Part shown: one piece after another, positions 15,159-63,838 of the stretch
How the letters are laid out: every line of letters starts with the position of its first letter
How positions within the stretch are numbered: position 1 is the first letter of the stretch
Assembly: GCA_009784985.1 (NCBI GenBank)
Contig: WQXF01000001.1
Coordinates: 1,540 to 65,539 of the forward strand
DNA: 64,000 bases
Reading direction: 5' to 3'
Source of the DNA: Clostridia bacterium
Lineage (GTDB): Bacteria > Bacillota > Clostridia > Christensenellales > Aristaeellaceae
Notes under the pieces: generated by a model
The model's database searches: none
Seen by the model: the letters and a program-made list of their open reading frames with translations, nothing else
What the model was told of the DNA's origin: nothing
Program-made: the position numbers and the translations under genes

Positions 15159-15663
15159 GGCAGTGCGCATCGGCGTGCTCAGCGATACCCATCGGGATGA
15201 AGCCGCCATCCGCCAAGTTTTGAAACGTTTGTTGGCGGCAGGGCCTCTGGATGCCCTCTGTTTTTTGGGGGATTGTGCGGCGGACTTGCGTGTGATAGAA
15301 GCCAACCTGCCGCAGGGCCATAAAACAGCGGTTTATGCCGTGCGTGGCAATAACGATGTGTTTGCTGCCGAGACCGATGAACTTACCGTTTCTTTGGGTG
15401 GCAAAAAGCTGCTGCTAACCCACGGGCACCGGCAGCGCGTGAAAATGCATCGATTGGGTTTGCTGCTGCACGCACGGGAACAGGGGGCCGATGTTGCGTT
15501 ATTTGGCCACACCCACCGGCCCGAATGCAGGTACGAGCAGGGCATATTGTTGCTGAATCCCGGCGCGGCATGTAGGGCGAATCCTGCCTGGGCCGAGTTG
15601 GTGATACGGGATGGAGTGGTAACTCCCAGGCAATTCACAATGATGGAAGGGGATGAAGTATGA
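15151..15663 (+). CDS. YfcE/YsnB (MJ0936) family metallophosphoesterase
   Basis: Motifs: IGVLSDTH, GDC, RGNND, LTHGH, GHTH. The start overlaps the rph-rdgB stop. Confidence 0.85.
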   Translation: MSRAVRIGVLSDTHRDEAAIRQVLKRLLAAGPLDALCFLGDCAADLRVIEANLPQGHKTAVYAVRGNNDVFAAETDELTVSLGGKKLLLTHGHRQRVKMHRLGLLLHAREQGADVALFGHTHRPECRYEQGILLLNPGAACRANPAWAELVIRDGVVTPRQFTMMEGDEV

Positions 15664-16331
15664 GCTATTTTTCATATTTAAGTTGCAATAGGGAGCTTCC
15701 AACCGGCTTCTTTGGAAAACCGCCGAAAGCCATCTATCCTAGTTATGATGCCTATCGTTCTTCTCCCGATTATGTTGTTCCGCAAGATCTGCTTACGGGC
15801 AAACCTCGAAAAATTGATGAAAACGACATCACGGCTTGCCTTAAGGGCAATGTGATTGTGTATGCAACCAATGAAGATTCCGGGGGCGTTCGTATTACAC
15901 CGTATTCACCGATTGTTACAATATGCGGAACGCAAAAGATAGACGACGATGTAAGTTGCTATTTCACTTTTCCGTTTCGATACAATACCACTGGCCACCG
16001 TAGTAGTTTAGAAAAGTACCTATGTAAGTATTTGCAACCGGGCGATCAAGCGCAGCATTTGACTTGTTGGGCCGGAGGCGGGAAATCCAAAAGCGATACA
16101 TGGGAAGAAAAGACTATCGATTTACAATGGGTGATTGATAACAATGGTTGGGCAGAATATACCAGGATCAAAAACAATAGCACTGTGCTGTTTCTGGCGC
16201 CGAAAGCGCCCTTGCCGGAGATCGATATCTACCCCGTGAAAAATCCTGATTTCTCTTGTCAAATCATTCAAGAGGGCGGTTTTGAAGCATTCACCGCAAG
16301 CTCGGCATCCGCACAGGGCATAGGTTTTTGA
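15660..16331 (+). CDS. Hypothetical protein (223 aa), no recognisable family, lower-GC than flanks
   Basis: ATGA start/stop overlap with the phosphoesterase gene. There is no signal peptide or TM, and several Cys. The coding call rests on ORF length and the coupling. Confidence 0.5.
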   Translation: MSYFSYLSCNRELPTGFFGKPPKAIYPSYDAYRSSPDYVVPQDLLTGKPRKIDENDITACLKGNVIVYATNEDSGGVRITPYSPIVTICGTQKIDDDVSCYFTFPFRYNTTGHRSSLEKYLCKYLQPGDQAQHLTCWAGGGKSKSDTWEEKTIDLQWVIDNNGWAEYTRIKNNSTVLFLAPKAPLPEIDIYPVKNPDFSCQIIQEGGFEAFTASSASAQGIGF

Positions 16332-19311: not shown

Positions 19312-19770
19312 CTATGTCGTGTGGTCGTTGTTATTGTTTATTGTTGCTTGTTCCTTCTTTCGGTAAAGAACAAAGGCTCTTATTGCAGCGCATAGCGTGT
19401 ATGTAAAAAAGAGCGGTAAAATAGTAAAATAGCCACCTTGATACCACCGCCGGGTTCTTAAGAATAATTCGGGGGCATCAAACAAATACATCGCTATTTC
19501 TGGAATGCACATCAAAAAAAGGAGAAAGATAGATGCAATGTGGGCAAAAAGCATGCTTTTGCGCTTGTAATCCTTTTTGCTAAATGTAAGAATAGCGAAT
19601 ATTATGCCAGAAATAACATAGGCAAGAGATAGCCAGTACATGGAACGATGGTCGAAAGTAAGCCTACGCACGGTTTCAGTGCTTATTGTTATTTGTTGCG
19701 TAACAACGAGGAATACCACCGGCCAAAGCGCGATTGCCAGAACATGCGCTATGTGCATATGTTTTTTCAT
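19312..19770 (-). CDS. Hypothetical 4-TM membrane protein in an AT-rich patch
   Basis: Four hydrophobic helices and an Asn-rich tail. Composition is visibly AT-rich compared with coaBC next door. Confidence 0.5.
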   Translation of the reverse strand: MKKHMHIAHVLAIALWPVVFLVVTQQITISTETVRRLTFDHRSMYWLSLAYVISGIIFAILTFSKKDYKRKSMLFAHIASIFLLFLMCIPEIAMYLFDAPELFLRTRRWYQGGYFTILPLFFTYTLCAAIRAFVLYRKKEQATINNNNDHTT

Positions 19771-28945: not shown

Positions 28946-29275
28946 TTTGAGGAGCCTCCATTATGCTCTTAGTATAAAAAGCCGCCAAAGGCGCCCGACC
29001 TTCGGCATGCTCCGTGGCGCGGAATATAAAAAGAGTATAACATAAATTGGCCGGAAAAGGAAGGTCTGGCGGCTTTTTTTATAGAGAAAGCGGGGTTTTG
29101 CCAACCGGGCGCTTCCATAGTTTTCCCATTTTGGTGTGGTGTATGCGGGGTGGGGGCGTTGTTGGTCGGTTTATGCATGTTGGTGTGTAAAAAGAATGCC
29201 TTTGGTTCATTTGCCAAAGTGCTTGTGTTCAGTCATTGAGTGTGCTACTATATATAGTGTCATGGAGCTGTGGCA

Positions 29276-29953
29276 ATGCGGGAAAATCCTAATTTATGGG
29301 AGCGCCAAATGAAACATGAAAAAATGATACTCGTTGAAGGTGTATCAAATGCAGGAAAAACTGCTCTTTGTAAAGGCTTATCCGAAACCTACGGATTTGT
29401 AGTCATACCAGAAGGTATCAGGTATCTTGAAAAACAAACTGGAAAATTTGAGGCTGAACTAATGAGCATACCTACAACCCTAGAAATTGAATGCAATAAT
29501 CAGAAAACTCTTTTCGATATGGAGCTGCAAAGAATTATTGATGCTAATCGCCTTTTGTCGAAAAGCACCAGCGTTGTTATCGACAAATCCGCTCTTTCCA
29601 TTATGTCGACGGCGTTGGCTTTTGAAAAAATAAAAGGACTTAAAGGTGCATTTGACCATGTGAATGTTTTGTACAGTAAGTATAGAGAGGATATTTTGCA
29701 ACAATCTTTAAGAGAGCCAAATGGTATCGTCTTATTATCCGTTTCTCATGATAGTGCGAGGGCTAGGAATGCTAAGCGAAGCCACGTTCTAGAAGCGGAT
29801 TGGATTTCGGAAAAAATCCAAACAATTCAAGATGGATTTTTGAAAAACTGGATATCAAACATGCAGATTCCATCCATAATCATCGATACTTCTCCAAAAA
29901 GTTTGCTGGAGGTATTGGATGAGGTTGCTCGGTTCATTTTTAACTTAGAGTAA
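29276..29953 (+). CDS. P-loop NTPase with nucleoside/nucleotide-kinase-like architecture (function unknown)
   Basis: Walker A GVSNAGKT lies close to the N-terminus, with a hhhhD element VVIDKS and an Arg/Lys-rich lid-like segment SARARNAKRSH. Alternative start at 29309 (MKHEKMILVEG, with TGGGAG 6 nt upstream). AT-rich codon usage. Confidence 0.6.
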   Translation: MRENPNLWERQMKHEKMILVEGVSNAGKTALCKGLSETYGFVVIPEGIRYLEKQTGKFEAELMSIPTTLEIECNNQKTLFDMELQRIIDANRLLSKSTSVVIDKSALSIMSTALAFEKIKGLKGAFDHVNVLYSKYREDILQQSLREPNGIVLLSVSHDSARARNAKRSHVLEADWISEKIQTIQDGFLKNWISNMQIPSIIIDTSPKSLLEVLDEVARFIFNLE

Positions 29954-29974
29954 TAGCAGGCGAGGTAAGTATTA

Positions 29975-30880
29975 ATGGTAGATTTGCATTGCCATACGAA
30001 ACATTCCGACGGGACATGGAATACCGTACAGCTCTTGCAGCAAGCAGAGAGGAAAGGAATTACTCTTCTGTCGATTACAGATCATGACACATTAGAGTCC
30101 TATTTTGATTTGTTTGGTATGGATTATTCACAATACTACTCAGGGGAAATTCTTGTCGGTTGTGAGTTTGCTGCCGTTTTTAATGGCATAAGAATTGAAT
30201 TGCTGGGATATAGCTTCGACTTATTCGTTGTTCAAAAATGGCTAGATGATTTCTATCGGAGGGTAGAGAAAAAAAAGAGCTTTTGCGAAGAGTACGATCA
30301 ATTATTGGCGTTGTGCAAAAAACATAATGTAGCTGTAGATGCTGGTGATATGATTAATCCATCTATAGAGTATCCAATAGCAGCAATACATAGAAATATC
30401 AAGCAGCACCCGCAAAATCGCCATTTATTTGATAGAGCGAGTTGGGTTAGCCAAGAAGTTTTTTTCAGAAACTGCACGTGCAATGTTAATTTTCCTTTGC
30501 ATTTAGAGTGCTCTACTCAAGTTCCGAAAGCAGAAGATATTGCAGACGTTATTAGAGAAGCTGGGGGTTTTGTTTTTCTTGCGCATGCTTTTGCTTATTC
30601 TTTGAGTGATTACAATGCTTTTCTAAATCAAATAGCCGATGCAAGAGGGATTGATGGTTTAGAAGTGTATTGCTCAAAGCATAGTACAAGCCAAGCAAAT
30701 TATTTGAGCAATTTTTGTCGAAAGAGGGGACTGCTAGTATCTGGTGGTTCAGATTGTCATGGAATGAAGAATCCGTCAAGAAAGCTAGGCACTGGTTTTG
30801 GAGGTTTATGTGTGAATGAAAAGGAAATAATGGCTTGGGCCGGACAAAGGAATTCAGATCAATATAAAGTGCACAACTAG
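29975..30880 (+). CDS. PHP-domain phosphoesterase, TrpH/YciV-like
   Basis: Motifs MVDLHCHTKHSDG, ITDHD, FLAHAF and GGSDCHG. GAGGT lies 9 nt before the ATG, 22 nt after the preceding gene. Confidence 0.7.
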   Translation: MVDLHCHTKHSDGTWNTVQLLQQAERKGITLLSITDHDTLESYFDLFGMDYSQYYSGEILVGCEFAAVFNGIRIELLGYSFDLFVVQKWLDDFYRRVEKKKSFCEEYDQLLALCKKHNVAVDAGDMINPSIEYPIAAIHRNIKQHPQNRHLFDRASWVSQEVFFRNCTCNVNFPLHLECSTQVPKAEDIADVIREAGGFVFLAHAFAYSLSDYNAFLNQIADARGIDGLEVYCSKHSTSQANYLSNFCRKRGLLVSGGSDCHGMKNPSRKLGTGFGGLCVNEKEIMAWAGQRNSDQYKVHN

Positions 30881-30906
30881 AGATAGTTGCGTTTTCTTCA
30901 GAAATA

Positions 30907-32367
30907 TTACCTTGCTGTTTTATGTTTTTTTAATTGCAAGTTTATTAGGCTATATATCGGCCCTAGGTTAGATAAGAGAAAAGCAAAGGCTGTTGAAAAA
31001 AGCAAAGATATCCTCTTTGGCTTATTCATTCCGTGCATATATGCAATTTTTAAAGGATAAGTATATGTGCATGCTATCATGAAAATATAGGCGGCCAGTG
31101 CTGAAGTAAGTGCGATTACATTTGTTGCGCATATTGAATAAATGAAGGATAGAACGACACAAAAAGGGAAAAAGAGCCACGACAGGGTTCCGCGAATTTG
31201 ATTCAGCCAAAAAAGGAAACCGCTCAATGTACGACGGCCGCTTTTTTCGACAATGGAATTGTATATGCTTGTGAATTGAAAAGCAGTTCTAAACCATACG
31301 GCATGCTGTTTGACTTGGGTACGTAGATAATTTGGAGTTTCGGCCAACTCCAATGAAGGAAGGGCGCAAACGAAAATGTTTTCGTGTCGCAGATAGAAGC
31401 TCATGTATATATCTTCACACCAAAAGTCTGTTTGAAATCCTCCCATTTCTAACAATTTATCCAATCTAACGAACATACCATGTCCCACTACATGATTTCG
31501 TAGCAATTGTGAGCGCATAAAGCTATTCATGAGTCCATTCCTTAGTTCAAAATTTGATTGGTACATAGCAAACCCCTTCATTATTGGGGATAAAGCATTT
31601 ACATTTGATATCATGATTGAGTATTGTTGCATAATTACAGGATTTTTATTGAGATGAATACACTTTAATGTATCCCTAAAAGTCTCTTTATCAGGCATGC
31701 TGTCAGCATTGTATACGCAAATATATCTTTTCTCTTTAGGAATAGGGGAGGGGAGCAGCTCTTCCAGATTTCCTAATAGAAAATTCAATTGGTCGGCCAT
31801 GTACCCATTATTATGCGGGTAGTGAATGATGTGCAATCTATCCTCAAGGTGAAGTCTTTTAATGAAGCGCTGAACAATTTCAAAAGTGCTGGGTGCAATA
31901 TGTATCGCTTCTTCTACGGCAGATACTGTTTTGTCAGGATTGTGCTTACAGAAAATCTGTAATGCTTTTAGATTGGATGTGGGCAAAATGGTGTTATACT
32001 TGTTAATCAAAACACTAATATCCACATTGCGCATCAGGTCTTTGACGAGCGCTTGCTTATTTGCTAGGTTTGCTTGTTTTTCATAGCTTTCTTTTTCAGT
32101 AGTGACAACAATGATCGATATGTTTAAATGCGCTGGTGCTATTTTTAGAAAATGCAAGAGCGTTGTCTCAATTATATCCTGCTCCCTTAAGCAAGGAATG
32201 ACGACCGATATTTGACAATCGCTGCTGAGGGGTGCAGAAAGGTACCGCATTTTTAGCTCCTTGTATTTTTTGCAAAACACAGAAGACTTTACCCAATTCC
32301 AAATGCCGATGAGTAGTTCCAGCAGAAGGAAGATTTGAAGGAAGAGCGGAATATAATTTCTTAACAT
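30907..32367 (-). CDS. Family 2 glycosyltransferase with N- and C-terminal TM segments (synthase-like)
   Basis: An N-terminal TM is followed by ISVVIPCLREQDIIETT and a DxD-like YNADS. WCEDIYMSFYL precedes QHAVWFR, which resembles the Q(R/Q)xRW region. Four to five C-terminal TM helices. AT-rich. Confidence 0.65.
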   Translation of the reverse strand: MLRNYIPLFLQIFLLLELLIGIWNWVKSSVFCKKYKELKMRYLSAPLSSDCQISVVIPCLREQDIIETTLLHFLKIAPAHLNISIIVVTTEKESYEKQANLANKQALVKDLMRNVDISVLINKYNTILPTSNLKALQIFCKHNPDKTVSAVEEAIHIAPSTFEIVQRFIKRLHLEDRLHIIHYPHNNGYMADQLNFLLGNLEELLPSPIPKEKRYICVYNADSMPDKETFRDTLKCIHLNKNPVIMQQYSIMISNVNALSPIMKGFAMYQSNFELRNGLMNSFMRSQLLRNHVVGHGMFVRLDKLLEMGGFQTDFWCEDIYMSFYLRHENIFVCALPSLELAETPNYLRTQVKQHAVWFRTAFQFTSIYNSIVEKSGRRTLSGFLFWLNQIRGTLSWLFFPFCVVLSFIYSICATNVIALTSALAAYIFMIACTYTYPLKIAYMHGMNKPKRISLLFSTAFAFLLSNLGPIYSLINLQLKKHKTAR

Positions 32368-36143: not shown

Positions 36144-36892
36144 GTGGACAAATTGAGAAATCTGGCAGCTGTCTTAATCAACGGGTGTTTGCCTCTTTTG
36201 GCCATACCGATAAATGGTTATTTGATTGATAGGAGTATACCGCAAGAGTATTCATTGCTATTTTTGATAGCGCTTTCTATCTGCATATCACTTTTTTTCT
36301 ACTTTATTATCCCTGGTATTTTATTCAATCTATATTTTGTCAGGTGGATTTTCGACCCCCTCGCCAGATTTGAAGGCTGTTGGGCCAGTATTATTGATAT
36401 AGAAAACAATACCGATGGCCGTGTATGCGGTTTTTTTAGGTTTATTTACGATAGACACGAAAGCAATTACTTATATGAAGGTCAAAATTATAATATAAAA
36501 GGAGAAACAATTACATCGTTTGCGGCGAGTGATATTCAATATAAAAAAGAGATAAATGGACTTCGCTTCTTTGGAACAGCTAAAAGAACCAATGAAAATC
36601 CAGCTGTTGTTAATAGGACGACTACTATAAATACATGGGGAGAAATAAGTTTTTCTGGAGGAAAAAAAGATCCTTCAATAAGAGCTTGAACTCAGTAAAT
36701 GGCTTTTTTATTAATGACAGCAACGAACTCTTTAGAGCTAGGTATGTAGCAATGAGAGTAACTACTGGCAGGATAAGGCAACTAATGGAAATCCCAACAA
36801 TGAGAAGTAAAAATTTAGAAATGCAAAATGAACGTGCAATATATGCAGTTAAGCACTATAAGGAATATAAAAAATCCTTTGTTGGTTTGTAG
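36144..36892 (+). pseudogene. 3-TM hypothetical protein interrupted by a -1 frame change at an A7 tract (36662-36668); either frameshifted gene, homopolymer error or programmed frameshift
   Basis: ORF 36144-36689 and ORF 36635-36892 overlap in adjacent frames. Reading GGA GGA AAA AAA with one extra A, or a -1 slip, gives a continuous ...SFSGGKKRSFNKSLNSVNGFFIND... of 249 aa. GTG start with AAGGAGG upstream. AT-rich. Confidence 0.55.
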
Positions 36893-39860: not shown

Positions 39861-40865
39861 TTATTGATATAATGCGTAGGGGATATTGAAAACTCTCGCG
39901 TATTGCTCGGCAATACTGCCCTCTTTTACGCTCAAAGTGAGTTTGTTGCAGCCATAAAAAGCATTCTCGCCGATATGTATTACGCTGTCTGGGATGGTTA
40001 CGTTGGTTAAGCTGCTACAGTTATAGAACGTATTGTGGCCGATAGTTGTCACGTAATCCGGGATGGTTACGCTGGTTAAACCAAGGCAACCATAGAATGC
40101 ACCACCACCGATGCTCGTTACGCTGTCTGGGATGGTCACGCTGATCAAGCCACTACTCTCAGCGAACGCATTGGCACCTATAACCAGTATTCCTTCAGGA
40201 ATCTTATACGTGCCTTCTTTGAGGCTCGGGAAAGAGACTAGCTTCTTTTGTTGCATATTAAAAAGCACGCCATCAATCTGCGCATATACCGGATTGTCGG
40301 ATGATACATCAATGTATGCCAATGGACAACCCAGAAAGGGGTTTAAACCGATGCCCATTACACTGTTCGGGATAGCTGCACTGGTCAAGCTGCTGCATCC
40401 CATGAACGCATAATCACCGATGAATGTCACACCGTTCGGGATGCTTACATTGGCTAGACTGCTACATCCACTGAACGCATAGTCGCCGATGCTCGTTATA
40501 CTGTCCGGAATGATCACGCTGGTTAAGCCTTCACACAATGAAAATCCCCAATCGCCGATATGCGTTATGCTGTCCGGGATAGTTACGCTCGTTAAGTCCC
40601 TACATCCATGGAATGCAAAGTTACTGATACTCGTTACCGCATATCCATCTAATTCACTCGGTATCAATAGATCGCCTTTTGGTTCTATCCCGTGCCTTGA
40701 AATCCTCGCGCCGTCACTCTCAAGTACATATCTCCATTGCCCGCTTGCATCCACCCTTGGCTCCCATTCCTCTGCGCCTGCATTTACCGTAAGCAGTGCC
40801 AATGCCGCGATCATTAGGCATGCACACGCTGCACTTCGTATCCAGCGGTTTTTTGTTTGCTTCAT
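39861..40865 (-). CDS. BspA-type leucine-rich-repeat surface protein with signal peptide
   Basis: The leader is ACACLMIAALALLTVNAGA, followed by DASGQWRYVLESDG...LDGYAVTSI and LRR units (IPDSITSIGDYAF...). The tail is IAEQYARVFNIPYALY. Confidence 0.85.
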   Translation of the reverse strand: MKQTKNRWIRSAACACLMIAALALLTVNAGAEEWEPRVDASGQWRYVLESDGARISRHGIEPKGDLLIPSELDGYAVTSISNFAFHGCRDLTSVTIPDSITHIGDWGFSLCEGLTSVIIPDSITSIGDYAFSGCSSLANVSIPNGVTFIGDYAFMGCSSLTSAAIPNSVMGIGLNPFLGCPLAYIDVSSDNPVYAQIDGVLFNMQQKKLVSFPSLKEGTYKIPEGILVIGANAFAESSGLISVTIPDSVTSIGGGAFYGCLGLTSVTIPDYVTTIGHNTFYNCSSLTNVTIPDSVIHIGENAFYGCNKLTLSVKEGSIAEQYARVFNIPYALYQ

Positions 40866-53527: not shown

Positions 53528-53606
53528 AAAAATACCTCCTCTGCGCTTTTGTTCAGTATAACACACCATATATGACAAATGGAACGCTTTTGTGCACAAA
53601 TATCAT

Positions 53607-53635
53607 TTGACAATAGAACGCATGTTCGCTATTAT
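53607..53635 (+). promoter_or_regulatory. Near-consensus sigma-70-type promoter upstream of the orphan tail-fibre gene
   Basis: TTGACA (53607-53612), a 17-nt spacer, then TATTAT (53630-53635), about 25 nt before the RBS AAAGGAGGG. Confidence 0.6.
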
Positions 53636-53660
53636 GCAAACATCGAAAGGAGGGCATGGA

Positions 53661-55373
53661 ATGGCAAAAAACAAAAAACCAGCGGTAACGGTACGCCATC
53701 GCACGATGAGCATACCCAAGGATCGAAGGTGGCTGGGCGTGGAGCGAGACCGAAACGCGGAGCTTGTGGAGTTTGTGCTGCCACGCGTGTATCAGGGCGT
53801 AGACCTGGCGGAGAAGACGATTTTTGTGGACACCATGAACGCGCAAGGCGGATTGTACGACACCGCTCAGCCCGAAAAGCATGTAACAGAAGAGGAAATT
53901 TACCTAAGTTGGGTTGTGGGGCCGCTGCCGGCCTTTACCGGCGGAAAGGTAAAAGTGCGGCTGCGTGCCATTGGGCCGGATTTTGTGTGGCAAACAGAAA
54001 CCGGCGAATTTAACTTGGCCACGACTTTTTTGGGCGACGATCCGCCGAATCCGCCGGGTATGGGGTACTTTAACCTTGCGCTGCTGCAAGTGGCCGAGTT
54101 GCGCGACCAGGCGGCGCTTTCCGCCGCGTCTGCCGAGCAAAGTATTGCTGCCGCCCAAATATGGGCCGAAAGCTCCGGGTCTGCCGCCAGAGGCATGGAG
54201 GTGCTTAAACAGCTTACCACAGAGACCAGCGATACCGGCCCCATCGCCACGATCCACCCGGTAGACGGCCTGCCGTTGGATGTGGCGGCCCGGCTTATCG
54301 CCCAGCAGGCGGGAGCAGGCGATCCGTCGCCGGATAATGTGCGGCCCATCGTTGGGCAGAATGCGCTATCGATTGTACGATCAGGGGCAAATCTCTCCAA
54401 TATGACGACATACAACTTTGTTAAGCCTGCAACCAGGACGCGCAATATACAAACGGGTATCATGCCGCCGGGGACTTATACGATATCGATGCAAATGAGC
54501 GGACAAGCAGGAGGGTTTTCGGGGTTTGGTTTACGGGCACAACGCTCCGCGTCCGACGAAGGGGGTGACGTTCCCGGAACGACGACCCTAAACTTTAGCG
54601 AGACATCTCCCACCAGGGTTGTCGGCACATTCGTGGCCCCCAATGGGTTTGCGGTGCTGTACTGCTATATACATGGTGATAATCCAGATGGAGCGACGGT
54701 TTCAATATCCGACATACAACTTGAGTTAGCGCCTGGCACAAACACGTTTGAGCCTTACGCAGGGAATGCCTACAACATCACACTGCCGCAAATGCTATAT
54801 GGATTGCCGGGGGCGGAAGACGAGGTGCGGAACGATGGAACTGTGCTGCAAAACACGCGCTTGCAAGTCCTGAATGGTTCCGAAAGCTGGACAAACAGCG
54901 CGAATATATCCGGATCAACACTCGCAAGATTTTACTGCCCAGGAGGTGCAGTTGGGGCGTTTGCAAACGATATACCAGGCATATGTGATCGCTTTGCGTG
55001 GATATCTCCATGGGTGTTAAACATATCGGGCGAAGGATGCGGATGGGTTAACCAAGCATCGACCCGTTTTGACATCGTGATCGCAAAATCCCGGATACCG
55101 GGCTGGGATGATGCATGGGACGCCGCCCAAAGAGCAACCGTATTTAGGGGGTGGCTGGCTGCCAACCCTACCACGATTATAGCCGCGCTAAGGGCGCCCG
55201 GAGCGCTGTCGATCCCACCAATCACCATCCCTGCCCTGCCAGGCGTAAACAACATATGGAGCGATGGGGGAGGGGCCGTCACGGCGGCGGGGCGGTTGTC
55301 GCCGCAACATGCCCACAATCAGATCAATGCGCGCCTGGCGGCGCTTGAGAACCTAGCAACAATGAGCAAGTAA
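53661..55373 (+). CDS. Phage tail-fibre / baseplate upper protein-like (XkdV/BppU-N-like N-terminus)
   Basis: The N-terminal ~120 aa resemble the BppU_N/DUF2479 pattern (RWLGVERDRNAELVEFVLPR...GLYDT...). An Ala/Ser-rich coiled-coil collar follows (AELRDQAALSAASAEQSIAAAQIWAESSGSAA). The gene is followed by an XkdX-like gene. Confidence 0.55.
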   Translation: MAKNKKPAVTVRHRTMSIPKDRRWLGVERDRNAELVEFVLPRVYQGVDLAEKTIFVDTMNAQGGLYDTAQPEKHVTEEEIYLSWVVGPLPAFTGGKVKVRLRAIGPDFVWQTETGEFNLATTFLGDDPPNPPGMGYFNLALLQVAELRDQAALSAASAEQSIAAAQIWAESSGSAARGMEVLKQLTTETSDTGPIATIHPVDGLPLDVAARLIAQQAGAGDPSPDNVRPIVGQNALSIVRSGANLSNMTTYNFVKPATRTRNIQTGIMPPGTYTISMQMSGQAGGFSGFGLRAQRSASDEGGDVPGTTTLNFSETSPTRVVGTFVAPNGFAVLYCYIHGDNPDGATVSISDIQLELAPGTNTFEPYAGNAYNITLPQMLYGLPGAEDEVRNDGTVLQNTRLQVLNGSESWTNSANISGSTLARFYCPGGAVGAFANDIPGICDRFAWISPWVLNISGEGCGWVNQASTRFDIVIAKSRIPGWDDAWDAAQRATVFRGWLAANPTTIIAALRAPGALSIPPITIPALPGVNNIWSDGGGAVTAAGRLSPQHAHNQINARLAALENLATMSK

Positions 55374-56368: not shown

Positions 56369-57208
56369 TTATTGATTCAGCAGCCAATCCGCAGGCCGGA
56401 TCAGCGCCGACTCGTGCTCGTCGTCCACTTCATCCATTACCATCAGCGCTTTTGCAGATTCCAGACGCTTGCGTTCCGGCTCCATGGTGGCGATCACCAC
56501 GCACACGCCCACCACCGTGACCGAAAACTCACGCATCATGTCCATCATGCCCTTGGCGGTGCCACCGGCTTTCATAAAGTCGTCCACAATCAGCGCACGC
56601 TGGCCTTCCCGCACTGCCCGGCGTGAGAGGGACATGGTTTCGATCCGCCCCGCCGAGCCGGAAAGGTAGTTGATGTTGACCGCCGGGCCCTCGTATACCT
56701 TGCTGCTTCGCCGCCCGATCACCAGGGGAACGCCCAGCGCCTTGGCAGCCATCAGCGCCACCGGGATGCCCTTGGTTTCCATGGTGAGCACAAAATCCGG
56801 CTCGTCGTGATAAAACTGCCCGGCCATAATCGCGCCCATCTTTTCCACCAAGTCGGGCATAGACAGGATGTCGGCCATGTACAAAAAGCCGCCGGGCAGC
56901 ACCCGGCCCGGCTCGGCCAGCCGGTTTGCCACCGACTGCACAAAATCCAGCGCCGCGGCTTGGGTGATTGCCGGGCGGTACCGCACGCCGCCTGCCGCGC
57001 CGGTTACGGTGTCCAGGCAACCGAGTTGGAACGTGGCCATGGTGTCAGCCAGGATGTCGATATCCTCGCTCAGTGTGGACTTGGCTGCTCCAAAAAGCTC
57101 GGCAAAGCGGCTGAGCCTGATCACCTGATTGGGCGAGGAAGTTAGTATGCGCGTCATCGCGGCCAGTCTTTCATTACGGCGGATATTTTCGCGGCGAATA
57201 TTTTGCAT
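56369..57208 (-). CDS. purR: Pur operon repressor
   Basis: The N-terminal PuR_N pattern is RNERLAAMTRILTSSPNQVIRLSRFAELFGAAKSTLSEDI. The C-terminal PRT domain has ALIVDDFMKAGGTAKG. Confidence 0.85.
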   Translation of the reverse strand: MQNIRRENIRRNERLAAMTRILTSSPNQVIRLSRFAELFGAAKSTLSEDIDILADTMATFQLGCLDTVTGAAGGVRYRPAITQAAALDFVQSVANRLAEPGRVLPGGFLYMADILSMPDLVEKMGAIMAGQFYHDEPDFVLTMETKGIPVALMAAKALGVPLVIGRRSSKVYEGPAVNINYLSGSAGRIETMSLSRRAVREGQRALIVDDFMKAGGTAKGMMDMMREFSVTVVGVCVVIATMEPERKRLESAKALMVMDEVDDEHESALIRPADWLLNQ

Positions 57209-57403
57209 AAGGCATACTCCTTTTGGCGTCTCGCAAGAAAAAGACGAATGATTCCTTCTGAGCAGCATTATTATATAGCACTATTGGAGCAAAATCCACT
57301 ATTTTTTATCGAATTATTCTTTTTTTGTTCGTGTATTGATTGCAAGACGCCCTTCGGCGTATAATAAACGCAATGTGAAAATAAAACGTTTGGAAGGTGC
57401 ACA

Positions 57404-58807
57404 ATGCAACAGGTTCCGCAAATTCCGCACATACGCGATTTTCGGGGGCAGCGCGTCCATATGATAGGCATCGGCGGCAGCTCCATGTCCGGCTTGGCCG
57501 AAATGCTCCAGGCTCAAGGATATCAACTCACCGGGTCGGACAATACCGATTCTTACGCCACCCGCAAGCTGCAGGAGAGGGGTGTTTTTATCACCATTGG
57601 GCACCACGCCGCCAACGTAGCCGGGGCTTCGCTGGTGGTGTATACCGCCGCCATTGCGCCGGACAATGCAGAGCGCGTGGCCTGTGAGCGCGAGGGCATA
57701 CCCACCCTGGAGCGCGCCTACCTGCTGGGGCAGCTCATGGAAGGGTATCCCTGCGCCATTGGCGTGAGCGGAGTGCATGGCAAAACCACCACTTCGTCCA
57801 TGCTGGCGCAGATCCTGTTGGAGGCAGGCACGGATCCGGCCATTAGCATCGGCGGATCGTTGGATGCCATCGGCGGCGGCATGCGGGTGGGCCATGGCGA
57901 TGTGTTTTTGGCCGAGGCCTGCGAGTTTAACGCCAGCTTTTTGCGGCTGCGGCCCACCGTGGCCGTGCTGCTCAATATCGACGAGGATCACTTAGATTTT
58001 TATCGGGATATTGACCATATCACCGACACTTTCGCCGAGTTCTTGGCGATGTTGCCTCCCGATGGAACCTGCGTGGCCTGGGGCGACGACGAGCGCGTCC
58101 TGAGCCTGCTGCCGGGCCTGCCTTGCCTGTGGCTCACCTACGGCCTGGGCGAGCACAACCGCTGGCAGCCGTTAGAGTTGACATACGATCAAACAGGCCA
58201 TGCTGCCTTTACCGCCACCCTGGACGGCCAGCCCATGGCCCGGGTGGAGCTGCAGGTGCCCGGCTCCTTCCAAACCCTAAACGCTTTGGCCGCCCTGGCT
58301 ACCGCCCATGCCGTGGGGGTTGATATGGACATCGCCGCCCGGGCCCTGGGCGGATTTGTGGGCGTACACCGCCGGTTTGAGCTTACCGGCGTGGTGCAGG
58401 GCGTTCGTTTATATCACGATTACGGGCACAACCCCACCGAGATGCGCTATGCTCTTTCGGTGGCGAACATGCAGCCCCATAACCGGCTGTGGGCGGTGAT
58501 GCAGCCCCACACCTATTCGCGGGTGAAGCGGCTGTTTGAATCCTATATCCATTGCTGCGACGTGGCAGACGAAATACTGATCACCGACATCTACGCCGCG
58601 CGGGAAAAGGATCCGGGCGATATTCACAGCACCATGCTGGTGGAGCGCATTGCCGCCACCGGGCAGAGGGTGCATTATACGCCTACCTTTGATGATACCG
58701 AGGCGTATTTGCGAGAGCACTGGCAGCCGGGGGATTTGGTGCTGACCATGGGGTGCGGGAATATCAATTTGTTGAATGATCAGATTGCGGAGAATGAGGA
58801 GGGGTGA
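57404..58807 (+). CDS. murC: UDP-N-acetylmuramate--L-alanine ligase
   Basis: Patterns HMIGIGGSSMSGLAEML and GVSGVHGKTTTSSML, plus the Mur ligase middle and C-terminal domains. Confidence 0.95.
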   Translation: MQQVPQIPHIRDFRGQRVHMIGIGGSSMSGLAEMLQAQGYQLTGSDNTDSYATRKLQERGVFITIGHHAANVAGASLVVYTAAIAPDNAERVACEREGIPTLERAYLLGQLMEGYPCAIGVSGVHGKTTTSSMLAQILLEAGTDPAISIGGSLDAIGGGMRVGHGDVFLAEACEFNASFLRLRPTVAVLLNIDEDHLDFYRDIDHITDTFAEFLAMLPPDGTCVAWGDDERVLSLLPGLPCLWLTYGLGEHNRWQPLELTYDQTGHAAFTATLDGQPMARVELQVPGSFQTLNALAALATAHAVGVDMDIAARALGGFVGVHRRFELTGVVQGVRLYHDYGHNPTEMRYALSVANMQPHNRLWAVMQPHTYSRVKRLFESYIHCCDVADEILITDIYAAREKDPGDIHSTMLVERIAATGQRVHYTPTFDDTEAYLREHWQPGDLVLTMGCGNINLLNDQIAENEEG

Positions 58808-58821
58808 TTTTTTAGTTGGAC

Positions 58822-59106
58822 CTACTCCTCAAAGAGATCGGAGTGCGTACCTGTTCCGGAAGCCAAAAGAACCAAATTGCCTTGATCAATCTGGTAGACA
58901 AGTAACCAATCAGGCTCAATGTGGCATTCACGGTACCCCCGCATTTCACCTTTAAGCGGATGATCTTGGTATTTTTCTGGCATCTGCCTCTCGGAGGCCA
59001 GCAAATCGAGCGCGATGGTCAGTTTGGAAATATTTTTGCCGCGCTTGATTGCACGCTTAACGTCGCGTTTCATTTTGGCGGTGTACTTAATTGTAAGCAT
59101 GGTCAA
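58822..59106 (-). CDS. yafQ: Type II toxin, YafQ family (RelE/ParE superfamily mRNA interferase)
   Basis: The motif DHPLKGEMRGYRECHIEPDWLLVY is typical of YafQ. There is a 4-nt overlap with the upstream antitoxin gene. Confidence 0.85.
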   Translation of the reverse strand: MTMLTIKYTAKMKRDVKRAIKRGKNISKLTIALDLLASERQMPEKYQDHPLKGEMRGYRECHIEPDWLLVYQIDQGNLVLLASGTGTHSDLFEE

Positions 59107-59375
59107 TCCTCCAGCATAGATTGCACAGCTTCCTCGGCGGTAGTATAAGGCCCGTGCAGACCTCTTCCTAAGCGGATGTCCTCCATCGCCTTGCGGAGTT
59201 CGGCACTTGGCCTTCTGTCATGGCTGCGCTTGACGGCAAATGGTATGCCGTCCGTCTCAAGGGCGGCGGCAAGGAACATTCTAACCGCCGTTGGCGTATC
59301 AAGGCCAAGGTGGGAAAAAAGGGAATCTGCCGCTGCCTTCATGCCATCGTCTATTCTAATTTGAATTGTTGCCAT
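59103..59375 (-). CDS. dinJ: Type II antitoxin, DinJ/RelB family
   Basis: MATIQIRIDDGMKAAADSLFSHLGLDTPTAVRMFLAAAL matches the RelB/DinJ ribbon-helix-helix pattern. AGGAGG precedes the ATG at 59375. Confidence 0.85.
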   Translation of the reverse strand: MATIQIRIDDGMKAAADSLFSHLGLDTPTAVRMFLAAALETDGIPFAVKRSHDRRPSAELRKAMEDIRLGRGLHGPYTTAEEAVQSMLED

Positions 59376-59395
59376 ATAGCCTGCCTCCTGTAATG

Positions 59396-59436
59396 ATTTG
59401 CATTTCAATCGTAATGCAAATTGTTGCATTTGTCAA
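59396..59436 (-). promoter_or_regulatory. dinJ-yafQ promoter with overlapping ATGCAA/TTGCAT inverted repeats (likely autoregulatory operator)
   Basis: On the minus strand, TTGACA (59431-59436), a 17-nt spacer and TACGAT (59408-59413). The inverted repeat AATGCAAcaatTTGCATT lies inside the spacer, and a third ATGCAAAT lies downstream. Confidence 0.55.
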
Positions 59437-59510
59437 GCGCTGTCGTTTCATTAAATTTTGTGATATAATACGCTATGTACGATCCCACACAAATCGGAGG
59501 AACACATTTC

Positions 59511-60365
59511 ATGCCGGAAATCACGCGGGCTTGCCTGGCGCTGATCCTCAGTTGCGGGCTTGCCTATGGCGGCTGGAGCGAGATCGCGCCCCATGCCGAT
59601 CCGTATTTTGATTCGCTGATATTGGTCAACAGAGAAAATAGGGCCCCCATCGCCGCGCCATCATTGGTGTTGCCGGATGTACCGCCGGCCAGATCGGGCA
59701 ACGCTTCGAATGTCTACATGCAACCCAATGCCGCCAATGCGCTGGAGCAGCTTTTTGCCGCCGCCCAGGTGGAGCAGGGGTATTTGCTGTACGCCGTGTC
59801 CGGCTATCGGTCGGCGGGAACCCAGGGCGCGATATACGAGCGCCGGGTGGAACAAAGCGGAGAGGCCGCCAAAAGGTGGGTGGCGCCGGGCGGTTTTTCG
59901 GAACACCAAACCGGCTTGGCCATGGACGTCACCGGCGCCAGTGTGCGGGATTTGGGATTAACCCAGCGTTTCGGCGATTCCGAAGAAGGGCTGTGGGTGG
60001 CGCACAATGCCCACCGCTTTGGTTTTATCATACGCTACCAGCGCGGATGGGAGCAGATCACCGGCTATAATTACGAACCTTGGCATCTGCGTTATGTGGG
60101 CCTTGAGCATGCCGCCCGCATGTACGAGTTGTATATTCCATTAGAGGAATACCTGGCGCTGTTGCAGCAGGAACGTGTGAACGAGGTGCTTGTTGCGCTG
60201 GGGTTGGCGCCGCTGATTACGCCTACGCCAACGCCTGATCCTACACCCATGCCCACACTGGAACTCACGCCCATGCCGCTGATGACGCTGGCGCCTGAGG
60301 CCATCCCGTCCCAGCCAACCGGTGATAATCCTTTCGGCACGCCCAGGCCGATTGAAAGGCCGTGA
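59511..60365 (+). CDS. M15B (VanY-type) D-alanyl-D-alanine carboxypeptidase family protein with Pro/Thr-rich C-terminal tail
   Basis: SGYRS...SEHQTGLAMD...EPWHLRYVG gives the Zn ligands H, D, H of the VanY family. The leader is ACLALILSCGLAYG. An extended -10 TGATATAAT lies at 59461-59469. Confidence 0.8.
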   Translation: MPEITRACLALILSCGLAYGGWSEIAPHADPYFDSLILVNRENRAPIAAPSLVLPDVPPARSGNASNVYMQPNAANALEQLFAAAQVEQGYLLYAVSGYRSAGTQGAIYERRVEQSGEAAKRWVAPGGFSEHQTGLAMDVTGASVRDLGLTQRFGDSEEGLWVAHNAHRFGFIIRYQRGWEQITGYNYEPWHLRYVGLEHAARMYELYIPLEEYLALLQQERVNEVLVALGLAPLITPTPTPDPTPMPTLELTPMPLMTLAPEAIPSQPTGDNPFGTPRPIERP

Positions 60366-60418
60366 TTGCTGTTTTCTTATGATGAAGAAGAGGTTGGGCA
60401 AGGGACTGGAAATTTTTC

Positions 60419-60447
60419 TTGACTATGAAGGGATGCTTGCGTATAAT
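60419..60447 (+). promoter_or_regulatory. Consensus sigma-70-type promoter at the left edge of an AT-rich islet
   Basis: TTGACT (60419-60424), a 17-nt spacer, then TATAAT (60442-60447). Confidence 0.65.
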
Positions 60448-60482
60448 TTAACACATGCCTATATAAGGTAATTTGAAGATAC

Positions 60483-61382
60483 ATGCTAAACGGAGATCTG
60501 CTTGTGAATGCCAGAAAAAGGTTCGGCGAAAGAATTGTACTTAAGGCAATCATACAAGTGTTGCCTATGTTGGGCATTACCATTGGAATTAATTTCATTG
60601 GAAAGAATGCTTTGCTTGTCGATTCGGTAACAGGGGAGTTGACTGTTTTGGGATGGTCGCTTACTTTTGTCGTCGTAATTTCTGTTTTTCTGTATAATTA
60701 TCTCGCATATCGACATGAATTGCTTGAGAAGAGAGACAGGTTGCACAAAGAAGGAGTATCAAGAAAAATTAACGAGTCGATTTATAATTTGTTTTTGCAG
60801 CGAATTATTTACTGTAAAAACCAGTTAAACTCTAATAGGGATATAGATTTATCGAATTTTGATAAGTACATTGGAAGCTGTACCATTAAGGAAATATGCA
60901 ATTTGCTTTCTGATTTGCTGGGGATAGATAAGCACAGAGTGTTGATCGTCTTACTTTCTAAACGCTTAAAGAAGTGGGAAGCTCTGGCCTCCGTCAATGC
61001 CGATAATACGCAAAAGCTAGATGATCTTCTGGTGAGCGATAAATCTGCGTTAGCGCAATTTCTTGATTCTGGCCACACAGAATGGTATATCATGGACAAA
61101 AAAGAAGCAGTAAAAGAAGACAGGTATTTGAATGATTCAAGAGACATGGTAGAAGAGACGGGTTCACTTTATAGCTATCGTTTTAAGACTGCAAACGCCA
61201 CAAAAGCCGATATCTCCGACATGATTATTTCTATATCAACATATGGAGCTGTGTTATCAGAGAAAGACATTGGAATAGTTCGAGATAATATTCTTTTCTC
61301 ATTTCAGAATTTAGTGATGTATGATGACGTGGTTAATAAAGTTAGGATAAAAGAAATGAAAAGAGAGCTGAAGTTAAGTTGA
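60483..61382 (+). CDS. Hypothetical 2-TM protein with ~200-aa cytoplasmic domain (possibly GAF-like sensor fold)
   Basis: The TM helices are IVLKAIIQVLPMLGITIGINFIG and LTVLGWSLTFVVVISVFLYNYLAY. The remainder is soluble with no recognised motif. Alternative GTG start at 60504, after GGAG. AT-rich. Confidence 0.55.
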   Translation: MLNGDLLVNARKRFGERIVLKAIIQVLPMLGITIGINFIGKNALLVDSVTGELTVLGWSLTFVVVISVFLYNYLAYRHELLEKRDRLHKEGVSRKINESIYNLFLQRIIYCKNQLNSNRDIDLSNFDKYIGSCTIKEICNLLSDLLGIDKHRVLIVLLSKRLKKWEALASVNADNTQKLDDLLVSDKSALAQFLDSGHTEWYIMDKKEAVKEDRYLNDSRDMVEETGSLYSYRFKTANATKADISDMIISISTYGAVLSEKDIGIVRDNILFSFQNLVMYDDVVNKVRIKEMKRELKLS

Positions 61383-62095
61383 TTGGTATTATTGGCGCTA
61401 TGTTAAGCGAAGTTGATGGTCTAAAGGGAGAGATGGATCTAGAAAGGATCGATTGCTTTTCTTGTATAGATTTTTATGTGGGGCAAGCATATGGAGCAAA
61501 TGTCGTGGTGGCAGCCTGTGGTGTGGGAAAAGTAAATTCCGCTATATGTGCGCAGGTAATGATTTATAAATATAACCCAGAATTTATTATCAACATAGGT
61601 GTAGCAGGCAGTCTGAGTTCGAAAATTGAAGTGCTTGATCTTGTGGTAGCAGATTCTGTTGTGCAGCACGATGTAGATACATCGGCCGTAGGGGATCCTG
61701 TTGGTATGATCTCGGGGATCAATTTGACATACATCCCTTGTGATGCAGGCGAGATGGCAATAGGTACTATTAGTAAAAATTCTGAGATACTTAGAATTCA
61801 TCATGGAACAATAGCATCTGGTGATCAATACATTGTCGATAAAAAAAAGAAAAGAGATATTGCTTCGCGATTCAATGCAGTTGCAGTCGATATGGAAAGT
61901 GGAAGTATAGGGCAAGTATGCCATATAAACCAGGTGCGCTTTTGTGCGCTCAGAGCGATTTCCGATAGAGGTGATGCTGCGGAGTACCTTGAATTTTTGG
62001 CTGATGCAGTGGAAAGAGCACTAATTGCACTCCGTATCCTGCTATCTGAGTTATCTAATACCGCAAGCAAATCTGAGCAAGGGAGTGAGAGATAA
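61379..62095 (+). CDS. mtnN: PNP_UDP_1 family nucleosidase, MTA/SAH nucleosidase (MtnN/Pfs)-like
   Basis: IGIIGAMLSEV, ACGVGKVNSA, NIGVAGSL and AVDMESGSIGQVC...LRAISD match the MtnN pattern. TTG start in a TTGA overlap with the upstream stop. AT-rich. Confidence 0.75.
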   Translation: MIGIIGAMLSEVDGLKGEMDLERIDCFSCIDFYVGQAYGANVVVAACGVGKVNSAICAQVMIYKYNPEFIINIGVAGSLSSKIEVLDLVVADSVVQHDVDTSAVGDPVGMISGINLTYIPCDAGEMAIGTISKNSEILRIHHGTIASGDQYIVDKKKKRDIASRFNAVAVDMESGSIGQVCHINQVRFCALRAISDRGDAAEYLEFLADAVERALIALRILLSELSNTASKSEQGSER

Positions 62096-62100
62096 ACGCA

Positions 62101-63396
62101 ATGTCATATAGAATTGATAATGTGTTGCTCTTTACTGGAATAGACTGGGTATCTAATGCGTGCGTGTACATTGATGGAGCCAGAATTATTTATGCAGGAG
62201 CGCAAGCAAAAGCACCACTATTCGATATTCCCCATGATTACATTAATGGGCATGGTTGTATAGCTATGCCGGGTTTGTCCAATGCGCATACCCACCTTTC
62301 GATGACATTGCTCCGTGGTGTGGGAAGTGACCAGGTTTTGCTCGACTGGCTAGAAAACGCTGTGTGGCCTGCAGAGAAGCGGCTTACTCCCGCCTTTGCC
62401 CGTGCTGGGGTAAAGCTAGGCCTGCTAGAGCAGCTGCGCTTTGGTGTCACAAATTTTGCTGATCAGTATTTCTATATGGATGATGTGGCTGAGGCGGTGA
62501 TCGAGAGTGGCGCACGGGCTTTGTTGGCTTGTGGGCTTTTGGGTTCTAATCATGAGCATCATAAGCAACAACTCGCCAAGAATGTGGCCCTGTTCAGGCA
62601 GTACCATGGCGCGGCCGAGGACCGTGTTCGTGTGGGGATCGGCACCCACGGCGAATACACCAACACCGATGAATCCATCCGCGCCCATGCAAAAGCGGCC
62701 CAGGAGCTAGGCGCGATGATCCACGTGCACATCGCCGAGACCCGCGCTGAAACAGAGGGCTGCAAGAGCCGCCGCAATGGTCGGTCGCCGGTGCGCTACC
62801 TTGCGGACATGGGGTTGCTGGACATCCCCACCCTGGCTGCCCACTGTGTGTGGGTGGACGATGCCGATATGGATATCCTGGCCGAAAAGGGGGTAGCGGT
62901 GGCCCACAACCCGGTAAGCAACCTAAAGCTGGCCAGCGGCGTGATGCCCCTGCCCCGCATGTTGGAAAAGGGCATACAGGTATCCCTGGGCACCGACGGC
63001 GCGGCCAGCAACAACAACTTGAACCTATGGGAAGAAGTTAAACTCACCGGTATCCTGCACAAGGGGGTATCCGGCGATCCTACGCTGATTTCGCCCAAGC
63101 AGGTGCTGGCCATGGCCACGCGCAACGGAGCGCGGGCAATGGGTTTTGAAAACGTAGGTTTGCTGCTGTTTGGCTGGCATGCCGATATGATCCTGCTGGA
63201 GGCCGGTTTGCCCCACCGTGTTCCCTGTGTGGATCCCGCTGCCGATCTGGTATACGCCGCCCAGGGCGCCGATGTGCGTATGACCATGGTAGATGGCCGC
63301 GTGCTTTACCTGGACGGTGAATACCTTACGTTGGATAAGGAACGGATCATAACCGAAGCCCAAAAGGCTGCCGATGTGATGATCTATGGAAGATAA
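62101..63396 (+). CDS. mtaD: Amidohydrolase, 5-methylthioadenosine/S-adenosylhomocysteine deaminase (MtaD)-like
   Basis: Patterns PGLSNAHTHLSMTLLRG, HVHIAET, AHCVW and SLGTDGAASNN match the MtaD/SsnA-type deaminase family. Confidence 0.8.
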   Translation: MSYRIDNVLLFTGIDWVSNACVYIDGARIIYAGAQAKAPLFDIPHDYINGHGCIAMPGLSNAHTHLSMTLLRGVGSDQVLLDWLENAVWPAEKRLTPAFARAGVKLGLLEQLRFGVTNFADQYFYMDDVAEAVIESGARALLACGLLGSNHEHHKQQLAKNVALFRQYHGAAEDRVRVGIGTHGEYTNTDESIRAHAKAAQELGAMIHVHIAETRAETEGCKSRRNGRSPVRYLADMGLLDIPTLAAHCVWVDDADMDILAEKGVAVAHNPVSNLKLASGVMPLPRMLEKGIQVSLGTDGAASNNNLNLWEEVKLTGILHKGVSGDPTLISPKQVLAMATRNGARAMGFENVGLLLFGWHADMILLEAGLPHRVPCVDPAADLVYAAQGADVRMTMVDGRVLYLDGEYLTLDKERIITEAQKAADVMIYGR

Positions 63397-63838
63397 AAGC
63401 AAAGCGTCTTTTTTGCAGCATTGGTTTAAGGGATTTGCAAAATCCATAGATCGTATAGCGGAACCGGATCGCAATGTGATTTGGAAAGAATGCGGCAGGG
63501 CATGCTCGGATTCGTATACAAAACAAATATACGTGGAGACTTATGCACTTTGTGAGAACATCCGCGATTTTTGTGCGCGTTTAAAAGAGCGATTTCCTGA
63601 GATGGATATTTGCGTGTCGGGGGATGGGGGATATATTCAACTGACGTATCGTTACTGCGCGTGTGACTTGGTGCGCGACGGGTTTATGAGCACACCTTTG
63701 TTGTGCGAGTGTTCGCGGCAGAGCTTATTGTACAATTGGGAAGCGGTGCTTGGCGAACAAAGGGTAGAGGTGGAATTGCTGCAGTCCATACTGGGTGGCG
63801 GCGATTGCTGCCGGTTTCTGATACGTGTTTTGGCATAG
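63386..63838 (+). CDS. Hypothetical Cys-rich protein (150 aa)
   Basis: The ORF overlaps the mtaD stop by 11 nt. It has 12 Cys, including CACD, CECS and a C-terminal GGGDCCRF. No confident family assignment. Confidence 0.45.
   Translation: MEDKSKASFLQHWFKGFAKSIDRIAEPDRNVIWKECGRACSDSYTKQIYVETYALCENIRDFCARLKERFPEMDICVSGDGGYIQLTYRYCACDLVRDGFMSTPLLCECSRQSLLYNWEAVLGEQRVEVELLQSILGGGDCCRFLIRVLA

Follow-up and report, generated by a model that had tools for sequence, protein, structure and literature searches.

Several routes for the disposal of S-adenosylhomocysteine (SAH) have been described, namely MTAN/LuxS, SAHH, and a deaminase followed by an SAHH homologue that cleaves S-inosylhomocysteine (SIH) (PMC10978960). 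The ahcY–mtaD gene pairs of related Clostridia and Negativicutes correspond to the route of an SAH deaminase plus an SAH/SIH hydrolase found in Thermotoga maritima and Methanocaldococcus jannaschii. The locus analyzed here lies in a stretch of 64,000 nt (the window; assembly GCA_009784985.1, contig WQXF01000001.1, positions 1,540–65,539 of the forward strand), and all positions below are given in window numbering. Like the ahcY–mtaD pairs, it has a resident mtaD-like gene preceded, at the same upstream position and in the same orientation, by the gene of a putative SAH-cleaving enzyme. Unlike them, it encodes at this place a nucleosidase of unrelated fold, MtnN, accompanied by an extra gene for a membrane-anchored protein with a predicted GAF fold and by a new promoter. 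The most likely explanation is the non-orthologous displacement of ahcY by a foreign mtnN cassette.

The PNP_UDP_1 superfamily, to which MtnN belongs, also includes immune proteins, such as Cap17 of CBASS and DtcC of Detocs. The immune PNP domains form a clade apart from MtnN (Rousset et al., 10.1101/2023.01.24.525353), and the MtnN/Pfs clade shows no enrichment in the vicinity of defence systems (0.030 observed vs. 0.033 expected; Table S3, 10.1101/2023.01.24.525353). An earlier sequence-only reading of the window had proposed that the two genes of the cassette form a membrane-sensor plus nucleosidase module, possibly with an immune effector of the Cap17/DtcC kind, and had named mtaD, as a natural metabolic partner, among the arguments against this proposal.

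Gene Order around mtaD and Borders of the AT-Rich Tract

The mtaD-like gene of the window (62101–63396, + strand), which starts 5 nt past the mtnN stop codon, encodes a 431-aa amidohydrolase of the 5'-methylthioadenosine (MTA)/SAH/5'-deoxyadenosine deaminase family. Its product matched Amidohydro_1 with E = 3e-68, and related NCBIfam deaminase models were matched below their cut-offs. A scan with the MtaD protein, taking one genome per species, gave 80 loci with flanks of up to 10 kb. In none of them was a PNP gene found near mtaD (0/80), and the same was true for members of the GAF-protein family (0/80). In the two nearest loci, L006 and L007 (Eubacteriales bacterium metagenome-assembled genomes (MAGs); MtaD identity of 76% and 67%, respectively), ahcY ends a few bases before mtaD, and this adjacency recurs in nine other loci, among them ones from Oscillospiraceae and Megasphaera. 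The ahcY of the relatives is of the short form (~415 aa) placed next to the deaminase gene and is probably of the SIH-hydrolase type. No ahcY was detected within the 64-kb window. The presence of ahcY at the position of the cassette in the relatives favors the metabolic caveat that had been attached to the earlier proposal. In a Thermobaculum MAG (L081, 7441–9938), two tandem copies of ahcY lie directly upstream of mtaD.

The AT-rich tract, read as acquired DNA, extends from 60366, just past the stop codon of the vanY-like gene that is its left neighbor (+ strand, stop at 60365), to 62600, its right edge being a gradient within the 5' part of mtaD. The GC content amounts to 38.8% across 60366–62100 in comparison with 57.1% in 56369–60365 and 60.1% in 62601–63396. 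The turn to AT-rich DNA directly after vanY, noticed in the sequence-only reading, was thereby reproduced, but the end that had been set at 62095 was not, since low GC at third codon positions (GC3) continues into mtaD. In the mtaD of the window, GC3 is 0.30–0.37 over codons 1–60, ~0.5 over codons 61–165, and ~0.77 beyond codon 165. The mtaD genes of L006–L008 have a flat GC3 over the whole length, between 0.67 and 0.93.

The orthologous locus is carried by three contigs, L003, L004, and L005, which are 100% identical, end at the same base, and probably represent one community assembled three times; their common end was considered as an insertion boundary and dropped because of this identity. 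The low GC3 over the first ~165 codons of mtaD is confined to the window and L003, i.e., the cassette-bearing lineages, and does not occur in L006–L008. Since ahcY occupies the equivalent place in the relatives and the GC3 dip is lineage-specific, we infer that the cassette displaced ahcY via recombination within mtaD. The nearest sequences to the N-terminal segment of the MtaD protein remain L006 and L007, so any donor of the AT-rich 5' part of mtaD would have been a relative, presumably one of lower GC content; a remote donor was dropped on the same ground. At the other border, the similarity between the window and L003 starts close to the −35 hexamer of the promoter described below. Upstream of this point, L003 was read by eye as AT-rich too and as lacking vanY sequence. 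Bases 1–208 of L003/L004/L005, upstream of the conserved promoter, have a GC content of ~30% and are not vanY.

No flanking direct or inverted repeats were found around the tract, no tRNA genes in the window, no recombinase (integrase or transposase) among the called neighbor genes, and no riboswitch was detected. It is the deviant composition, and none of the hallmarks of mobile elements or genomic islands, that argues for acquisition. The genes of the neighborhood are housekeeping ones, purR, murC, vanY, and mtaD. Between murC and vanY, ~1 kb upstream of the cassette, there is a pair encoding a RelB antitoxin and a YafQ-ParE toxin (58822–59429, − strand).

Identity of the Nucleosidase

The mtnN gene (61379–62095, + strand) codes for a 238-aa protein whose assignment to PNP_UDP_1 in the sequence-only reading was confirmed (Pfam, E = 2e-40), as was the remark that it carries no extra sensor domain, the protein being single-domain. 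Among the NCBIfam models, the MtnN equivalog NF004079 was matched with 196.1 bits against a cut-off of 169 and TIGR01704 with 132.5 bits against 73.8. The 38 strongest of 45 sequence matches in PDB were MTA/SAH or aminodeoxyfutalosine nucleosidases. Residues E11, M172–E173, and S195–D196 align with the catalytic residues of H. pylori MTAN (5JPC/3NM4); we take the catalytic and substrate-binding residues of MtnN in E. coli numbering to be Glu12, Met173–Glu174, and Ser196–Asp197. All homologues bearing a name, among 4,914 found at E ≤ 1e-10, were MtnN. The protein is 48% identical (E ~1e-72) to named MtnNs (P0033, P0053) and 45–51% identical to thousands of Clostridia MtnNs. With a median distance of 0.54 to other MtnNs, vs. 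0.475 among those MtnNs, it is somewhat more divergent than they are. The dN/dS ratio relative to the orthologue was 0.175.

Judged by its sequence, the nucleosidase is a canonical MtnN. It resembles the MtnN/Pfs enzymes (1JYS, 3NM4) in consisting of one PNP_UDP_1 domain (~230 aa), in scoring above the cut-offs, and in keeping the conserved catalytic set. Unlike the typical members, its gene lies on AT-rich, foreign-looking DNA upstream of mtaD and begins with a TTG codon that shares bases with the stop codon of the membrane-protein gene before it.

For the comparison with immune nucleosidases, the DtcC sequence and a partial Cap17 sequence were taken from the supplement of Rousset et al. (10.1101/2023.01.24.525353). 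The PNP fragment of Cap17 showed 15% identity (E = 9e-6), and the PNP domain of DtcC gave no significant match (E = 5.5). The PADLOC model of the immune PN superfamily reached 38 bits only, over a partial stretch. Neither fused to the nucleosidase nor encoded in its operon was any infection or signal sensor (TPALS/SAVED, receiver, NLR, pAgo, CD-NTase, histidine kinase), the neighbors being vanY, the GAF-protein gene, and mtaD. Cap17 and DtcC thus share with the window protein the broad PNP_UDP_1 superfamily fold only; it differs from them in clade, in the lack of TPALS/SAVED or receiver fusions, and in having no CD-NTase or histidine-kinase partner. The weighing of MtnN against Cap17/DtcC that the earlier note had suggested came out clearly on the side of MtnN (48% vs. 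15% or no match, with the substrate-binding residues kept). An immune ATP nucleosidase of the Cap17/DtcC type, the effector that had been considered possible, was ruled out because the protein passes the MtnN cut-offs and has 15% identity to Cap17 and no match to DtcC.

Promoter, Start Codons, and Transcription Unit

A sigma-70-type promoter, TTGACT-17 nt-TATAAT, is predicted at 60419–60447 (+ strand). It agrees with the consensus at 11 of 12 positions and is the best-scoring promoter-like site in a 5-kb scan. Promoter-like sites with at most one mismatch occur three times in 64 kb on both strands vs. 0.21 expected. At the same position of L003, in the orthologous locus (81% identical), there is an equivalent TTGACA-17-TACAAT. 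The promoter-like site indicated in the sequence-only reading was thus found again.

A GGAG ribosome-binding site (60493–60496, + strand) lies 7 nt upstream of a GTG codon at 60504. In L003, the GGAG(AT) motif 7–8 nt before GTG and the GTG itself are kept, but the codons between the upstream ATG (60483) and this GTG are not conserved. The GAF protein therefore likely starts at GTG 60504, giving 292 aa, and not at ATG 60483, which would give 299 aa; the gene callers likewise chose the 292-aa form. Of the 299-aa open reading frame (ORF) reported earlier, the presence is upheld, and the start and length are corrected.

The TTG start of mtnN overlaps the TGA stop of the GAF gene in a TTGA motif (61379–61382, + strand), which is conserved in L003 and L004. 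This supports the translational coupling suggested earlier, and the coupling is conserved. Between TTG and the first ATG in frame, six codons spell out IGIIGA, which is the first strand conserved in MtnN. Relative to L003, these codons have changed only synonymously, and the TTG start is accordingly real. Callers that start mtnN at ATG (231 aa) lose the first strand.

mtnN and mtaD are co-oriented and separated by 5 nt, and no convincing terminator-like site in the right orientation was found within the unit. A single transcript would run from the promoter at 60419 through mtnN and mtaD and probably also through a Cys-rich ORF of 150 aa (63386–63838, + strand), which overlaps the mtaD stop codon by 11 nt and probably closes the transcription unit. 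The product of this ORF gave a weak match to DUF6144, below the cut-off. The 5' half of the ORF has low GC3, and in L001 it is called as a 120-aa gene. None of the 80 related loci has the Cys-rich ORF adjoining mtaD.

The Membrane-Anchored GAF-Fold Protein

The gene upstream of mtnN (60504–61382, + strand) has a dN/dS of 0.107 at dS ~1 relative to its orthologue (81% amino acid identity), which marks it as a real gene. The two N-terminal transmembrane (TM) helices noted earlier were found again, TM1 at residues 10–33 and TM2 at residues 46–69, separated by a short loop (60531–60710, + strand; hydropathy of 1.6–1.7 in 19-residue windows and the AlphaFold2 model). The AlphaFold2 model is confident (pLDDT 90.7, pTM 0.79). 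It places helices at residues 2–35, which contain TM1, and 48–109, formed by TM2 and a long stalk. A GAF-fold core recognized by Foldseek follows at residues 116–246 (60849–61241, + strand), and a long C-terminal helix at residues 253–291 (61260–61376, + strand). The Foldseek matches in PDB included many GAF-domain proteins, among them phytochrome GAF, CodY, histidine-kinase GAF, PDE6 GAF, and fRMsr, with E from 8e-5 upward, a probability of ~1, and a target-normalized TM-score of up to 0.64. BFVD contained phage proteins of similar predicted fold. Based on the model, the soluble domain is predicted to have the GAF fold, so the GAF/PAS-like character guessed in the sequence-only reading is supported for the predicted fold.

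As that reading had also stated, the protein belongs to no family recognizable by sequence. Searches of Pfam, NCBIfam, PADLOC, PHROGs, and PDB sequences with the protein and with a 32-member alignment returned noise only, such as Phage_stabilise (19.6 bits, below the cut-off) and designed coiled coils. The GAF sequence models of Pfam (GAF, GAF_2, GAF_3) matched none of the 32 members at E ≤ 0.1. The protein thus shares with the GAF domains of phytochromes, CodY, PDE GAF-A/B, histidine kinases, and fRMsr the predicted alpha/beta fold and the flanking long helices, but differs from them in the missing Pfam GAF match, the lack of an enzymatic output domain, and the N-terminal two-helix membrane hairpin. 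Basic residues stand before TM1 and after TM2, and by the positive-inside rule the GAF domain would therefore face the cytoplasm.

No more than one other distinct close sequence, with the same GAF–mtnN–mtaD arrangement, was found among 5.8 billion clustered proteins. A profile search of this 5.8-billion-protein database, within the limit of its word index, returned known sequences only. HMMER run over 1.84 billion cluster representatives revealed ~30 distant relatives of 255–352 aa with 21–30% identity (a few local matches were higher), most of which align along most of the length. In the family alignment K199, Y208, D214, and G220–S221 are invariant, and W158 and T246–Y247 are nearly so. According to the AlphaFold2 model, the conserved residues from K199 to Y247 are distributed over the beta3-to-beta4 segment and the end of beta5. 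Where the family frequently has Cys, at the end of its GS-x-x-C motif, the window protein has Ser, and an enzymatic or redox GAF of the fRMsr kind was rejected on this account. A metagenome scan with the single GAF protein gave no match beyond one JGI contig, and no homologues were present in 50,697 phage or 72,556 plasmid records. In the phage collection, MtnN had matches of 27–36% only, one of them to a 290-kb Salmonella genome record. The GAF family is very rare, patchily distributed, and uncharacterized, and has a known fold.

Genomic Contexts of the Distant GAF-Family Members

Genomic contexts were read for nine distant members, and none had a PNP or MtaD gene nearby (0/9). The co-occurrence of the 2-TM protein with PNP genes, which had been put forward as a check of the proposed module, was thus not seen. 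The neighbors varied, including an M28 peptidase, a phosphoribosyltransferase, a large LTD/CARDB protein, a FIST protein with IspD, and an HD-domain protein. An ORF 0.7 kb upstream of one member resembles, on our own reading, a phage tape-measure protein. In L099 (1–17026), the family member P0152 stands last in a series of small genes whose Pfam signal is weak or absent. This series adjoins a gene for a 2177-aa RHS/YD-repeat protein, followed by sigma-factor and helix-turn-helix genes, a HepT-MNT toxin–antitoxin pair, and a KAP-family NTPase; the region looks like a conflict or variable island. Small ORFs upstream of the distant members were considered as a conserved partner and dropped, as they are not homologous to one another.

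The family looks like a patchily distributed accessory gene whose link to MtnN is specific to one small clade. Because it is unlinked to nucleosidases outside this clade, the association of the GAF protein with MtnN is best read as co-transfer and co-expression, and not as an obligate sensor–effector pair.

Discussion

In the explanation that we favor, an AT-rich cassette of ~2.2 kb with its own strong promoter would have entered this genome by horizontal transfer and come to lie between vanY and the resident mtaD. Recombination with the right-hand junction inside mtaD would have put it where the relatives have ahcY. MtnN would hydrolyze the N-glycosidic bond of the S-adenosylmethionine by-products MTA, SAH, and 5'-deoxyadenosine and so take over the SAH disposal performed in the relatives by AhcY. 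The GAF protein, for which the strong purifying selection indicates a function of its own, would bind a small cytoplasmic ligand at the membrane. We consider this overall picture, an mtnN cassette displacing ahcY and bringing along an orphan membrane GAF protein, to be probable, though not strongly so.

Several observations weigh against it. The borders of the tract bear no mobile-element hallmark. The absence of ahcY applies to the 64-kb window, and the remainder of the genome may carry ahcY or a second mtnN. Synteny around mtaD is otherwise not shared with L006 and L007, whose contigs end at ahcY, so the displacement in situ is deduced from adjacency and not from shared flanks. The AT-rich 5' part of mtaD is still closest to those same two loci. 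The cassette has stayed AT-rich, although its two carrier lineages differ by dS ~0.8–1.0, which is odd for an old insertion. Finally, tight coupling kept over this distance, together with a purifying selection that is stronger for the GAF gene than for mtnN, would be compatible with a true functional partnership as well.

Such a partnership could take the form of a regulated metabolic module in which the membrane GAF protein senses a metabolite of the methyl cycle or of purine metabolism and physically controls or tethers the co-translated MtnN, so that a small-molecule cue acting at the membrane would gate the nucleosidase activity. The conserved TTGA overlap, with a TTG start that has no strong Shine-Dalgarno sequence of its own, would suit this module, as would the purifying selection on both genes across dS ~1 and the GAF domain, a classic small-molecule sensor, which by the positive-inside rule would be on the cytoplasmic side, where MtnN works. 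The family has no PNP association outside this clade, however, stop/start overlaps are common between unrelated operon genes, and MtnN enzymes are not known to require partners; we regard the module as unlikely, though as the foremost of the alternatives. An altered role of the enzyme itself, with MtnN acting after MtaD and its specificity moved to the deaminated 5'-methylthioinosine (MTI) and SIH, appears improbable. It would be in line with the position of mtnN, which lies 5 nt before mtaD in the same orientation, with the median distance of 0.54 vs. 0.475 among other MtnNs, and with the ~415-aa ahcY by the deaminase gene in the relatives, which matches the route of a deaminase plus SIH hydrolase (PMC10978960). 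Yet neither the adenine-recognizing S195–D196 nor any other residue of the catalytic set has changed, the threshold of the MtnN equivalog is passed, and no specificity-determining change was identified.

The layout of the GAF protein, N-terminal TM helices followed by a C-terminal ligand-binding domain, resembles that of the membrane effectors of cyclic-nucleotide defence. PycTM, the 2TM-SAVED protein Cap14, and the TM-CARF protein Cam1 share this architecture, which includes no enzymatic domain, and the likeness is one of architecture only. It counts in favor of a two-gene conflict (anti-phage or toxin) system, with the 2-TM GAF protein as a sensor or ligand-gated effector and the PNP protein depleting or generating an adenine nucleotide or nucleoside. 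The rarity and patchiness of the family on AT-rich accessory DNA speak for it as well, together with the member in the RHS/HepT-MNT/KAP-NTPase region of L099, another next to the HD-domain protein, a third 0.7 kb downstream of the ORF that we take to be tape-measure-like, the BFVD phage proteins of similar predicted fold, and the RelB/YafQ pair 1 kb upstream. Against these points, the PNP protein is a canonical MtnN outside the Cap17 clade, and MtnN/Pfs is not enriched near defence (10.1101/2023.01.24.525353). In contrast to PycTM, Cap14, and Cam1, the sensor fold here is GAF, and no signal-making enzyme (cyclase, CD-NTase, Cas10) is encoded in the window or in the nine contexts; a kinase partner and a sensor fusion are lacking there too. 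PADLOC did not match the GAF protein, the phage and plasmid records held no homologue, and nothing relevant on TM-GAF anti-phage effectors was found in the literature. Moreover, the neighborhood is housekeeping and the cassette sits exactly at the metabolic-gene position of the relatives. On these grounds, a conflict system is very improbable. A broader version would make the 2-TM GAF family a new class of membrane proteins that respond to ligands by gating and belong to accessory or conflict regions; in this lineage, MtnN would have been recruited as a dedicated partner that makes or destroys the adenosyl ligand read by the GAF domain. The L099 island and the phage proteins of similar predicted fold are consistent with it, and we give it little credence; if true, it would amount to a two-gene membrane sensor–nucleosidase module for defence or signaling beyond the disposal of by-products of S-adenosylmethionine.

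The displacement of ahcY by the mtnN cassette, which we prefer to these alternatives, belongs to a type of event already known and seems to have left unusually clear traces here. The locus would be a natural example of AhcY apparently replaced by MtnN, an enzyme of unrelated fold, in the same operon position and on recognizably foreign DNA, with codon usage revealing the recombination junction. It also carries a lesson for annotation: the presence of a PNP gene on an AT-rich islet beside a 2-TM protein does not by itself point to an immune ATP nucleosidase. The analysis further defines a membrane-anchored GAF-fold family without a Pfam model, with ~30 cluster representatives in 1.84 billion; a search for its ligand and output could begin from the tight coupling with MtnN seen in one clade.

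Other Features of the Window

A second AT-rich islet was found at 29270–32367 (GC 0.38–0.39). Its genes encode a 227-aa protein resembling deoxynucleoside kinases, a 301-aa protein with a PHP domain, and a 486-aa GT2 glycosyltransferase (− strand), so this islet holds another nucleoside-metabolism gene on foreign-looking DNA. Low-GC ORFs without a Pfam match are located at 36144–36689 (181 aa, GC 0.35), 19312–19770 (− strand; 152 aa, GC 0.41), and 15660–16331 (223 aa, GC 0.45). The genome seems to be peppered with small AT-rich insertions.

A 593-aa ORF without a Pfam match (53592–55373) begins just before a TTGACA-17-TATTAT site at 53607–53635 that comes close to the promoter consensus; if this promoter is used, the true start of the ORF would be further downstream. 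A BspA-type leucine-rich-repeat protein (LRR_5, E = 2e-61) is encoded at 39861–40865 on the − strand, in DNA of somewhat low GC content (0.47).

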